The position numbers and the translations under genes were made by a program. 64,000 bases of DNA. It comes from Eledone cirrhosa (Eukaryota). Under the pieces are notes generated by a model. The model did no database searches, was not told where the DNA came from, and saw only the letters and a list, made by a program, of their open reading frames with translations. Each line of letters opens with the position of its first letter. Position 1 is the first letter of the stretch. Below are positions 13,732-58,339 of this stretch, in pieces. The stretch lies in the NCBI GenBank assembly GCA_964016885.1, contig OZ024743.1, positions 27,218,001 to 27,282,000 on the forward strand, in the 5' to 3' direction.

Positions 13732-13896
13732 AACACTACGTTTTAGAAGACTATCGTCATCCTTTTGTTCTAGCGGTGACAGAGAGAAACAATCGACAAT
13801 TGTTTCAGGGGAAATAACCCTGAAACAATCGACATTTGTTTCTCTCTGTCACCGCTAGAACAAAAGGATGACGATAGTCTTCTAAAACATAGTGTT
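13732..13896. repeat. Near-perfect hairpin with apex GAAATAA at 13811-13817
   Basis: ttttagaagactatcgtcatccttttgttctagcggtgacagagaga and its exact reverse complement. Confidence 0.95.
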
Positions 13897-13998
13897 GTGA
13901 GATTGTTCGTTTGGGAACGAATCGAATATTAATAGTATTATTATAATATTATTGTTCGATACAAATCTCACGAATGCATTATATGTATATATATTTAA

Positions 13999-14225
13999 AG
14001 AGAGAGAGAGAGAGAGAGAGAGAGAGAGAGAGAGAGAGAGAGAGAGAGAGAGAGAGAGAGAGAGAGAGAGAGAGAGAAAGGGATATATATATATATATAT
14101 ATATATATATATAATATATATATATATAGAGAGAGAGAAAGGGATATATATATATATAGAGAGAGAGAGAGAAAGGGATATATATATATATATATATATA
14201 TATATATATAGAGAGAGAGAGAGAT
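13999..14225. repeat. Compound (GA)n/(TA)n microsatellite with repeated gagaaagggatata unit
   Basis: Direct observation. Confidence 0.9.
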
Positions 14226-14334
14226 GGATGATGATAGATAGATAAAGATATAATACAAAACATTGAACAGTTTCTTTGCTAAGATTTGCTAAATCTGGAA
14301 TAAATAAATTTTTTGTTCATTTATATATATGTAT

Positions 14335-14460
14335 ATATTTTATCGAACCCGTAAGGCAAAGTTAATCTCGAAGGGATTTGAACTCAGAACGTAAAGGACA
14401 ATAACTCTATGCCGTAAAGCATGGTGGCTGACGCTCTACCGATACTACCAACGCACCGCA
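14335..14460 (-). mobile_element. SINE family A, partial
   Basis: Reverse complement of head and B box. Confidence 0.8.
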
Positions 14461-14769
14461 ACAGAGAATAATAAAACACAAGAACAATAGAATAAAATAG
14501 CCAAATAATAATGGTTTCTTTATTAGCTATAAAAGAAAACAAACATTAAAGATGACACAGGACGGTACTGGCCGATACTAAGTGGGGTTTTTCGTGTAAG
14601 AAATTGGGTAACATAAATACGAAAATCTTGAAAAAGTTTCAAACTAAAAAAAATTCCCCTGACCTCCGAGGATCACTCATGTAGAAAGCCCACAAATGGC
14701 CATGTTCACTCTGATCACTAGTTCAATTTTCCCTCTCAGTTGTCCTCCCCCAATCTAGAGGCACATACT

Positions 14770-15480
14770 TAGAGCAGGCTCACTAAGGAGAAAACCACTC
14801 TGATCACCAAGAATAATGACACAACACCCCACCATCAAACTGCAGACCATCAAAATGCCTTCGTACTACTTTAACAGCAATAATGTCACAGAAACTGACA
14901 GAACATTTGGGAACAAAACAATCTGCTTCCAGAAAAACAGAAATGATGCTGCAAAGGCTCATGTGGTTATAATGACCAGTGGCTAATCAATAATGCCATA
15001 ATTGAAAACTTCAGAAAGATCAAAATCAAAAGAAAACAGCATGGCATAGATCGACTAGCAAAAAGCATTGACAGTTTTCCCTACACATGAATGCTAAACA
15101 GACTAGTCATGAATAAAGTAACGCCAACAATAAGAAGATTTATCAAGTATGCTATGATAAAGTGACAAATAGTTCTGCAGATACAAACGAAGGATGGAAC
15201 TATAAAAACTGAACTCATCCCAATAAAAGTGGAATATTTCAAGGGGACTCCCTATCACCACTGCTGTTTTGTCTAACACTGATATAATTATTTGAGACAC
15301 TAAACAGAGCTGGATTGGAGGGAAAATACTACATGAAAATTAACCATCTCCTGTATATGGATCATCTAAAGTTGCATTCTGCAGGCCGGAGACAGCTGGA
15401 GACATCATTACAGATGGATTCATCTTCATTGATTCACAAAGCAACTTTGAAGGGAGGTAAAGTAACGAAAAAAAATAGTA
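14770..15480 (+). mobile_element. Degenerate Dong/R4-like RT fragment
   Basis: Broken frames: KTTLITK..CRP, Q..CCKGSCGYNDQWLINNAI, GIFQGDSLSPLLFCL, INHLLYMDHLKL. Confidence 0.75.
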
Positions 15481-54324: not shown

Positions 54325-55075
54325 CTGAATGATGTGTATAATTGGCTGTTATTTCCAGCAGGCCTTTACACAATAGTTGTTTAGATGGTCCCTTCTTAGT
54401 TGGAGCTATGTTTTATTTCAACTCTATTTTTCTGACCGTCTATAACTGTCTATGTCTGTCTGACATTGTCCGTCCGTTTGTTTCTCTCTCTCTCTCTCTC
54501 TCTCTCTCTCTCTCTCTCTCTCTCTCTCTCTCTCTCTCTCTCTCTCTCTCACCCTATTCACATCTATATATACTGTTTTCCTTTCCAATAAACTTATATA
54601 CAGAAATTAAAATATAGTATGTCTTATCATTTGTTTCAATTTTGTCTTGGCAACCCGTATTTTGCTGTACCCAACCGTCTTGGCAAAGTAAATTGACTGT
54701 TTTTACGGTATAACTCTAAAAAAGAAAAAAATGCATACATATACACGCACACACACACGCGCACATACACACGCACACGCACACGCACACACACACACAC
54801 AAAACACACACAAAACACACACATATATATTCCTATATCCATATTATGTTGTAGGGAATGATTGCGTAGCATTAAGGATATACAGATATGTGATAGAAAT
54901 AGTCTGTTATGAAAGAGTAGCAACAATCAGGAAAACGATGGTCGTATATCATCATAGTTTCAACGCTACATCAATATAGCTGCACGCACGCACACACGCA
55001 CGCACGCACGCACGCACACATACACACACACACACATACACACCACACACACACACACACACACATATATATATA

Positions 55076-55264
55076 ATAATTGTTTCTTTTTTTGGCACAA
55101 GGCCACCAATCACGCCAGTGCATTACTGGTACTTTATTTTATCGACCCCGTAAGGACGAAAGGCAAAATTAACCTTGGCGGGATTTGAACTCAGATCATA
55201 AAGGGACGTAACTCTATGCTTCAAAGCATGGCGTCCGACCCGCTACCGATACTGCCAATCCACT
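55076..55264 (-). mobile_element. SINE family A
   Basis: Reverse complement of the full SINE. Confidence 0.9.
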
Positions 55265-55782
55265 AATAGTGAGTATAACCGAAATTCCAGCTGCGAATAG
55301 CAGGTTCGGAATCGATCTTTGGAGGCTGCCATGGAGCACTCAATGAGATGAAATCAATAGATTAATGCTCAGAGTGATAACATAAGTTAGGTAATGTGAT
55401 ACAATGAAAAATGCGACCTGAGGCGTGCTGCCACCTTAATACTACAATAACGAAAATACAAAGAGGTTAAATATGAACCTAGACCTGCTCGATAGATTGA
55501 GATATCTTCGATATGTTTCTGGGAAATCGTAAGCTACACACCAAGTTGCGTAACATGCAAGTGAGTAATGTATCCTAAGATGGAACGAGAATATCCCTTT
55601 CTCAACAGGTATTTCATTCCGGTATCCACTAAGCACGGCTTATGAACCCGACTGCCAACTAATACAGCTATAATTTTGGCAGTGGGGTCACATGTCCTTT
55701 GTTAATATATATATATACATATATATTAACAGTTTGACTTATTTACGCATTTCTTGCTGTTTCAAGACGAAAACGTGTATTT

Positions 55783-56015
55783 GGACCCCGTACAGTCGAG
55801 CCCCTCCGCAAGATCGGAATGTCGGCAGCCCGTCTGAGGAAGGAACACCACAAATTGGGGTGGCTGTTGAAGCCGGTGTCGCTGGCCATTGTCCGCGGGT
55901 ATGCTTTTGCGGTCTTGTCCACGGGCGCAGCCACTTTACCGCCGCGCCCTAGGCCCAGAGACCAATAACCCCCTCCGCCACCCTATTCTTCTGTGACACT
56001 AGAGTTCTTGCCATT
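55783..56015 (+). mobile_element. CRE-clade 3' fragment (family B)
   Basis: GPRTVEPLRKIG..LGWLLKPVSLAIVRG; 3' UTR ttctgtgacactagag shared with 3690-4010. Confidence 0.75.
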
Positions 56016-56754
56016 CCCTCCCCTTCTCCGTTTTTTCTCTTTTATTTTTTTATCATATTTTCCTATTTTAGATTCCGTTCCTTCTTCTTAATCTAAATTT
56101 TCCCTCTTTTCATTTTCTATTACACTGTATATACTTGATATATTCCACGAATAAATTATATTTCAAACCATTAAAAAGAATCGGGTGCATTTGAAAAGAG
56201 TAAAATATGATGGAGAATGAAGTTTGGGGCCATCCTGCTAAGGGCCTTTATTGGTTGGTTCAGGTCATGGCTGAAGACAGAATAAGAAAAGAAAGAAGAA
56301 GCAAAATACAAAAGAGAAAAAAAGACGCAAACAGCAAACCAGCTAACGATAAAAAAACCCACACACTTAAAACACACACAATCAACGACAATAACACACA
56401 CACACACAGACGAAAGCGCAGACGCAAACGCATATACAAATACGAAATACGAAAAACGTACCAGAAAACGAAATAACGGCATAACGACAAAATGAAATAG
56501 AAGTGTAAGACCATCTACTGTCTCTCATCCTATTTCTTCGCTACCTCCCTTTTCTGACCCCCCTCCTCCCTGCCCACTCCCTTTTTTCTCTCCTTCCTCT
56601 CCTTGCTCTCCCTTTTTATTGCTCTCCTTGCTCTCCCTTTTTATTGCTCTCCCCGCTCTCCCCCTTTCCTTGTATCTATGTATTTGTTTATATACAAATA
56701 CAATGAGAAAAGGGGAGCAAGGAGGAATATGAAAGCAAGGATAGTAAGGAGAGT

Positions 56755-57345
56755 ATATATATATACATATCATATATATATATATATATATATATATATA
56801 TGTATATATATATATATGTATATATATATATGTATATATATATATGTATATATATATATGTATATATATATATATGTATATATATATATGTATATATATG
56901 TATATATATATATATGTATATATATATATGTATATATATGTATATATATATATATGTATATATATATATGTATATATATATATGTATATATATATATGTA
57001 TATATATATGTATATATATATATATGTATATATATATATATATATGTATATATGTGTATATATATATGTATGTATATATATATGTGTATATATATGTATG
57101 TATATATATATATGTATGTATATATATATATATGTATATATATATATGTATATATGTATATATATATGTATATATATATGTATATATATATGTATATATA
57201 TATGTATATATATATGTATATATATATGTATATATATATGTATATATATATATATATATATGTATATATATATGTATATATATATGTATATATATATGTA
57301 TATATATATATATATATGTATATATATATGTATATATATATATAT
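56755..57345. repeat. (TA)nTG interrupted microsatellite array
   Basis: Direct observation. Confidence 0.95.
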
Positions 57346-58339
57346 GAAATATAAGAATCAAAGAACTGTTCAAAACATTTTTGTGCTTACAACTGTTTCC
57401 TCCAAACCGAGGTTTGGATTCTTCGGAGCAATTTATTAATGAATGGACAGTTATATGACCTCCTTTTCACCCAAGAGACATACAGATACATATGCAAATA
57501 TTATGGGTCAACATTCATTACAGCATTTAGAGTAGCAGTACACACTTAGAGGTAACATTCATATTAAATGGTACAATAAAAAATACAGGTTAAAATACAT
57601 GAAAATAAGCGGTTATATAGTGCAAATGTTATATGTGTGACAAGCACGTGCGTCTTGTTTATATAGTGTGGCAGAGAGTTACGTGTAGTAGAAGAACTTA
57701 GGTAGGTAAACAAGAGTGTTAGGTTGGTTGATCTGGTGGAAAATTTTTTATATGATTGTTATAGTCTGTGTGTGGAGAAATGATATAAGCATTAAAAATA
57801 GTGCAAGCATTAAAAATATTAAAAGTATTGGAAATGCACAGCGAAGGGATGTTATGGACTTCATGTACTTCGACATTTTCATAGTCAGGGGAGTGTATTT
57901 TTCAGACTATATGCCCCTCACATAATCCACGACAATTCGATATTGCGCGTTTGACAATCCAGTTAGAGAATCGTAGTCTGATGTTCTTTAGTTCAATACA
58001 GGAGGCTGTTACGTTTCGAGAATCGACATTGAATACTACCCGGAAGTGTGTGTGTGGCTAAGGGGAGTTAATGCACGAGGGGAGGTAACTCCGAGGTTTC
58101 TATTACTAGCTATTGAAATGTGTCTCAAAATAGACCCTAATTTCTATGGTTATGCGCAACTTCTAAAAAATTTCTAAAGCATAAAGTGTTTTAACTATAG
58201 AGTAGTCTATTAAGTTGTGCTGAAGGTGTTCGTATTATTATGGTGAATTAACCCTCATCGTAGGGTGCCTCGGTTTGGAGGAAACAGTTGTAAGCACAAA
58301 AATGTTTTGAACAGTTCTTTGATTCTTATATTTCATATA
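57341..58339 (-). mobile_element. Penelope-like element remnant with inverted terminal copy (arms 57341-57412 and 58268-58339)
   Basis: 72-bp perfect inverted repeat, hammerhead motif, and faint Cys-rich/GIY-YIG-like remnants in broken minus frames at about 57850-58100. Confidence 0.55.
57384..57430 (-). ncRNA. Type I hammerhead ribozyme motif, U4C core variant
   Basis: Minus strand UGCU-CCGAAGA-A-UCCAAAC-CUCG-GUUUGGA-G-GAAAC-AGUU-GUA-AGCA. Confidence 0.7.

Follow-up and report, generated by a model that had tools for sequence, protein, structure and literature searches.

The window analysed here is a 64,000-nucleotide (nt) stretch of the Eledone cirrhosa genome (GCA_964016885.1, contig OZ024743.1, positions 27,218,001 to 27,282,000 of the forward strand; coordinates below are those of the window). 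A preliminary description had named three inverted repeats, all of which were present at their coordinates (case 1, 13732-13896; case 2, 35708-35921; case 3, 57341-58339), and had proposed as a recurring rule in three unrelated elements that inverted duplications start at stem II of a hammerhead ribozyme. Comparison of the parent families showed that the junctions of inverted Penelope-like element (PLE) insertions do favour stem II, but only as a minor hotspot and not as a rule. The assembly spans 3.0 Gb and is rich in (TA)n, which dominated whole-window Rfam and inverted-repeat scans.

Case 3 belongs to a young PLE, here called family 3 (3221 anchor matches). Its long arm (57341-58269, minus strand) is a 5'-truncated 3' end of the element that ends in (TA)n. 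It carries a type I hammerhead-shaped motif (57384-57430, minus strand) with a CCGAAGA core, a 7-bp stem II, a 4-nt loop, and a GUA triplet. The short arm (58268-58339, plus strand) indeed has its start in the stem II apex, 1 nt 5' of the loop, overlaps the long arm by 2 nt, and alone continues into a 'tail' extension (58340-58510, plus strand). This division, with one arm ending in (TA)n and the other bearing the tail, is a PLE hallmark shown by the family 3 arms. The hammerhead had been called intact; its three-stem motif is present, but the core is CCGAAGA throughout the family and an A-G at the base of stem II replaces G-C. In raw reads, related families that have just the core and stem II (57394-57431) in common with family 3, within different flanks, are more numerous, which suggests that the CCGAAGA variant may be conserved.

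Case 1 is a true stem-II-centred palindrome. Its arms (approximately 13732-13810 and 13818-13896) meet at a stem II of 4 bp with a 7-nt loop (13807-13821, plus strand), and every described part of this apex was located: AGGG at 13807-13810, the loop at 13811-13817, differing from the family loop at one base, and CCCT at 13818-13821, followed by GAAAC. The left arm (13732-13810, minus strand) comprises the 3' half of the family 1 hammerhead-shaped motif and downstream sequence. The longer right arm (13807 to approximately 13980, plus strand) owns the loop, and its stem III spacer, a small hairpin at 13822-13842, looks flipped relative to the family, an apparent micro-inversion. Among 30 family 1 loci, the uninterrupted copies have a type I hammerhead shape upstream, in which stem II measures 4 bp and stem I is longer and bulged. 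The hammerhead predicted upstream of case 1 was therefore found in shape, but its core is UUGACAA (U3/A8), not CUGANGA. Likewise, arms holding the 3' half of a hammerhead without CUGANGA were borne out for cases 1 and 3, although the parent cores are UUGACAA and CCGAAGA, and case 2 has none. Family 1 is older than family 3 and was seen only in short copies of up to ~300 nt; its motif and inverted structure make it a putative EN+ PLE.

A fourth inverted repeat in the same window (repeat 61502-62378; both arms together 61401-62378), absent from the preliminary description, belongs to another PLE, family 4. One arm (61401-61956, minus strand) bears a tail and contains, at 61552-61589, a complete canonical hammerhead; its partner (61958-62378, plus strand) has another at 62291-62328. 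Both arms keep the full ribozyme, and their junction lies ~330-370 nt upstream of it, making this a counter-example to the rule.

Families 3 and 4 displayed tandem or inverted pseudo-long terminal repeats (pseudo-LTRs), 5' truncation, and one-sided tails. Their longer copies (L222, L223, L337, and L338) contain broken frames with what we take, by eye, to be reverse transcriptase (RT)-like motifs and, at the C terminus, a GIY-YIG-like domain. The Pfam match to GIY-YIG was weak (E=0.0097, failing the Pfam cut-off), and two fragments of these frames gave no Pfam RT match. Alignment and folding placed three stems around the core in families 1, 3, and 4. The consensus CUGANGA...GAAA...NUH is complete in family 4, which scored 31.7 bits against the Rfam hammerhead model (below the gathering score of 34); families 1 and 3 had no Rfam hammerhead match. 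Their deviations, U3/A8 and U4C, respectively, are natural variants already reported in the available text of PMC4209133 and PMC3088659.

Case 2 is of a different nature. The 72-nt inverted repeat exists, with a 70-nt spacer, but as a core-less passenger in a high-copy composite repeat spanning at least 34250-37434. Both arms were carried by 40 of 40 scored copies, and the flanks were common to the window and 29 of 29 other loci, mostly over 2-3 kb. No hammerhead core preceded GAAAC genome-wide (0 matches to the pattern tried), and a relaxed core scan of 30 loci was blank. The preliminary description had itself held that a consensus lacking the core would speak against its proposal. The copies examined constitute a fixed unit without a core, not a variably 5'-truncated PLE family with a hammerhead. 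Judged from sequence comparison, case 2 is one old event multiplied inside a larger repeat, and because it is a fixed, core-less unit with shared flanks, it is not evidence for hammerhead junctions. Its parent may be a diverged PLE; a miniature inverted-repeat transposable element is ruled out by the shared flanks. The composite repeat (~34250-38600; 652 candidate copies, ~97% identical) also contains nested inverted repeats and a repetitive 159-aa frame at 36194-36673.

Breakpoint bias was assessed in family 3 using several samples. An unbiased set comprised 62 loci picked solely by the 3' anchor or the case 3 short arm. The first screened sample sought copies without normal sequence ~70 nt upstream of the anchor (first 100 of 359 matches). 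The second used two first-letter subsets (all 73 matches of one and the first 100 of 133 of the other; 80 regions fetched), from which chance matches, intact copies, 4 internal deletions, 7 obvious downstream palindromes, and 3 TA-flanked starts close to the anchor were dropped by eye. The apex was defined as a 7-nt window containing the loop and the first three bases of the stem II 3' strand, and was evaluated for those non-palindromic arms whose start lies 21-68 nt upstream of the anchor; a few weak 'inverted' assignments with distant partners may persist in the arm classification.

Pooled, 26 of 76 non-palindromic arms started at the apex (3-fold enrichment, scan-corrected p=0.0004), including 19 asymmetric inverted arms. 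The first sample contributed 14 of 33 (4.3-fold, p=1e-4), together with four perfect stem II palindromes, and the second 12 of 43 (2.3-fold, p=0.017). Genome-wide, the complete set of 73 matches yielded 14 stem-II-centred palindromes, while five control registers passing the same screen gave 0-1 each. These 14 represented three subfamilies and both loop orientations; ten came from one subfamily, some being identical, and two lay on small contigs. Flanks were unrelated in the first four, the only ones compared. A generic palindrome pattern recovered 22 loci versus 43 for its reversed control and hence no generic excess; the gaps it permits restrict it to junctions close to stem II, such that it shows existence and not enrichment. 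Raw reads across a palindromic junction gave no usable strand-change joints and neither confirmed nor denied it. We also observed family 3 internal deletions that skip the stem II 5' strand or loop (L172, L354, L387, and L153).

Chance combined with selection of examples, without any bias, could account for the spurious case 2 and for the in-window counter-examples that were passed over. However, the scan-corrected p value and the count of 14 palindromes against 0-1 make this explanation very improbable. It is largely refuted for family 3 and may still hold for families 1 and 4.

The same data limit the reach of the hotspot, and several results count against it as a rule or temper its strength. 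The 62 unbiased loci contained 27 inverted junctions, or 25 after removing one duplicate and the window copy. Only 1 of these 25 had an arm at the stem II apex, while the other 24 lay elsewhere. Near-symmetry was seen in five of the 25 at sites other than stem II (permutation p=0.00025), and near-symmetric junctions occurred as far as hundreds of nt from the ribozyme. The second sample fell short of a preset prediction of at least 3-fold enrichment when all arms were counted (2.3-fold), although inverted arms alone reached 3.1-fold (9 of 26). Stem II as a whole (18 nt) was not significantly enriched (34 of 76, p=0.12) because its 7-nt 5' strand was depleted, with only 4 of the 76 arms. Moreover, the screen keeps or loses whole symmetric classes deterministically. 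Assuming a pass rate of 0.6, we estimate that roughly 3% of family 3 arms are affected.

Other families added to this picture. Family 1 provided 16 loci with two opposed arms, a non-random sample from which L016 was discarded as spurious; junctions in the remaining 15 fell at stem II once (the window copy only) and were centred on stem I three times. Family 4 gave 2272 matches in an unfiltered pattern search, and screening left 420, the first 100 of which were taken and 83 loci analysed. In the apex window set as for family 3, its arms were not enriched (9 of 58, p=0.28). Enrichment emerged only with shifted or wider windows (p=0.003-0.03), including one at positions 27-34 that holds 15 of the 58 arms (p=0.012) and was picked after the data were seen. 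Family 4 nevertheless contained 3 exact stem II palindromes, two with further rearrangements, and 5 more junctions inside loop II. Another hammerhead-like family, its core incompletely seen, contributed one additional palindrome. The proposed rule thus failed: case 2 lacks a core, nearly all unbiased junctions fall elsewhere, and family 1 favours stem I. What survives is an apex bias in family 3, weaker in family 4, which is modest and concerns a minority of junctions.

Stem II is predicted to be the most stable 30-nt single-stranded DNA hairpin in the last 1 kb of family 3 (-4.9 kcal/mol). Since family 1 prefers its longer stem I, stem strength and not ribozyme identity is the likely cause, that is, a hairpin effect that is not ribozyme-specific. 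The near-symmetric junctions at sites other than stem II count in favour of this reading. We favour a model, with a probability of about 0.6, in which new complementary DNA (cDNA) snaps back at this hairpin and joins a second cDNA whose priming took place on the opposite target strand. [quoted passage not shown] A cDNA stopping in the 5' strand of stem II would fold on itself and be extended. Capture of the new sense strand by the other cDNA would generate a perfect palindrome, with the loop contributed by either arm, and hairpins opened or trimmed at the loop would leave asymmetric arms starting at the apex. Catalysis would be dispensable for joining, and any comparable stem should serve.

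Palindrome arms carry the same rare variants, so both derive from one source. In 13 informative palindromes, the loop belonged to the tailed arm in 5 and to the tail-less arm in 8; the remaining palindrome has two tails. As one self-primed cDNA cannot give a copy a tail that it lacks, we infer a second primed cDNA, although later loop flipping could blur this argument. The preliminary description had suggested stem II as a self-priming or template-switch point. A fold-back or joining point agrees with our data, but the 8 loops on tail-less arms are at odds with simple self-priming of one cDNA. Two primed cDNAs are in agreement with in vitro PLE reactions, in which both target strands were cleaved and extended and two start sites matched the tail (PMC11167929).

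A less probable but serious alternative is that two cDNA ends anneal directly by means of self-complementary sequence, a form of microhomology joining with no intramolecular fold-back. It would explain the 5:8 split in loop ownership, the end at stem II is the strongest predicted self-dimer (about -18 kcal/mol), and loop-less palindromic centres exist in families 3 and 4. Against it stands stem III, which in 18 of 37 sampled copies forms a perfect 8-bp palindrome with no loop and can pair between molecules (self-dimer -10 kcal/mol) but hardly within one. It gave 0 palindrome events, though the screen would have listed them. Asymmetric apex arms also show just ordinary microhomology. Snap-back is favoured over plain annealing because of this missing class and because the shortfall of arms in the stem II 5' strand approximates the sampling-weighted number of palindromes (about 5, a rough figure). 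Two considerations detract from the snap-back model: with capture, it yields the same product as direct annealing, and all of its steps are deduced from end products.

Events after insertion are improbable as the source of the hotspot. Long inverted repeats are unstable, and deletion between inverted arms could centre on an existing hairpin; the micro-inversion within a case 1 arm would fit such editing. Alternatively, a few master palindromes could have been re-mobilised, as the ten palindromes from one subfamily, some identical, might suggest. However, three subfamilies and both loop-tail configurations were found, and asymmetric apex arms retain partners of 100-900 nt.

A denser cluster of family 3 arms (77 of 153) started 5-20 nt upstream of the anchor, both at the predicted cleavage site and immediately 3' of it. 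The microhomologies there are weak or lack a loop, and snap-back accounts for them poorly, a further mark against it. Among arms at positions 11-32, 19 of 49 started at the predicted cleavage site or 0-2 nt upstream (p=1e-5). This signal was significant in the second sample only (16 of 30, versus 3 of 19 in the first), where the first-letter split may have biased it. Arms starting exactly at the site (equivalent to 57384-57388 of the window) include L390 (both arms), L406, L408, L415, and L416. A second recurrent palindrome centre lies 6-9 nt upstream of the anchor, just 3' of the site (L148, L176, L183, L193, and L194). It is at least as frequent as that at stem II, has only 2-nt microhomology, and occurs in both centre orientations. 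Several family 1 arms also start at or near the predicted cleavage site, while family 4 showed no arm-start peak there. The pattern is suggestive of reverse transcription of cleaved RNA but does not establish it.

Arm pile-up at the cleavage site suggests that the motif folds in vivo, which would suit a ribozyme-specific explanation where RT halts at the apex because the hammerhead RNA is folded or because a transcript has its 5' end at loop II. The 19 asymmetric inverted arms without special microhomology and the clustering of family 4 starts around loop II are compatible with it. We nonetheless consider it rather unlikely, as a stop alone gives no perfect palindromes, family 1 prefers stem I, and some symmetric junctions lie hundreds of nt away from the ribozyme. 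More speculatively, the hammerhead might shape PLE insertions twice, with cDNA snap-back at stem II seeding palindromes and self-cleavage setting template 5' ends. If this tentative idea is true, 5'-truncation maps in assemblies would preserve, in fossil form, an in vivo record of how the ribozymes of PLE families fold and cleave.

Thousands of young copies make a junction map able to separate such models. Here the map points to two primed cDNAs and hairpin-guided joining and, more tentatively, to cleaved RNA as template. The small effect refines the PLE mechanism and assigns the ribozyme no new role in driving the element.

Elsewhere in the window, inverted repeats with no detected hammerhead lie at 38721-39683, 12345-12666, 4621-5003, and 11307-11910. 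Broken RT-containing frames at 24950-28058 and 29479-32287 presumably belong to a pair of non-LTR retrotransposons, judging by motifs recognised by eye.

The origin of PLE inverted structures and the role of their hammerheads are stated as open points in the consulted sections of PMC8557442, and hammerhead cleavage is dispensable in vitro, with no RNA reads at the cleavage site (PMC11167929). As the preliminary description had supposed, no account of a stem II breakpoint bias was found in the literature searched, which did not extend to most subscription papers, older Penelope structure papers, or supplements. Inverted truncated copies and PLE hammerheads are already known (PMC8557442, PMC4209133), and from the accessible parts of these sources the modest hotspot is probably undescribed.

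Known EN+ PLEs, as presented in the portions available of PMC8557442 and PMC11167929, have an inverted 5'-truncated copy and a one-sided tail. [quoted passage not shown] Their tails are longer (~100-190 nt versus 30-40 bp), and those portions give no breakpoint map or ribozyme-stem preference. The minimal PLE hammerheads of PMC4209133, in the text available, are likewise type I with a short palindromic stem III and resemble family 3 in the 7-bp stem II and family 1 in U3-A8; family 3 differs in having U4C and lacking the G10.1-C11.1 pair. That text places motifs on opposite strands 100-700 bp apart and gives no account of junction positions. LINE-1 twin priming and foldbacks, from the accessible part of PMC11702581, also involve two primed cDNAs joined through short microhomology, with hairpins formed by self-annealing of cDNA ends. 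LINE-1 arms, however, copy different parts of one RNA, whereas in our families the two arms are copies of one and the same pseudo-LTR end, and, unlike in LINE-1 twin priming, a defined stem of the RNA recurs as the joining point.

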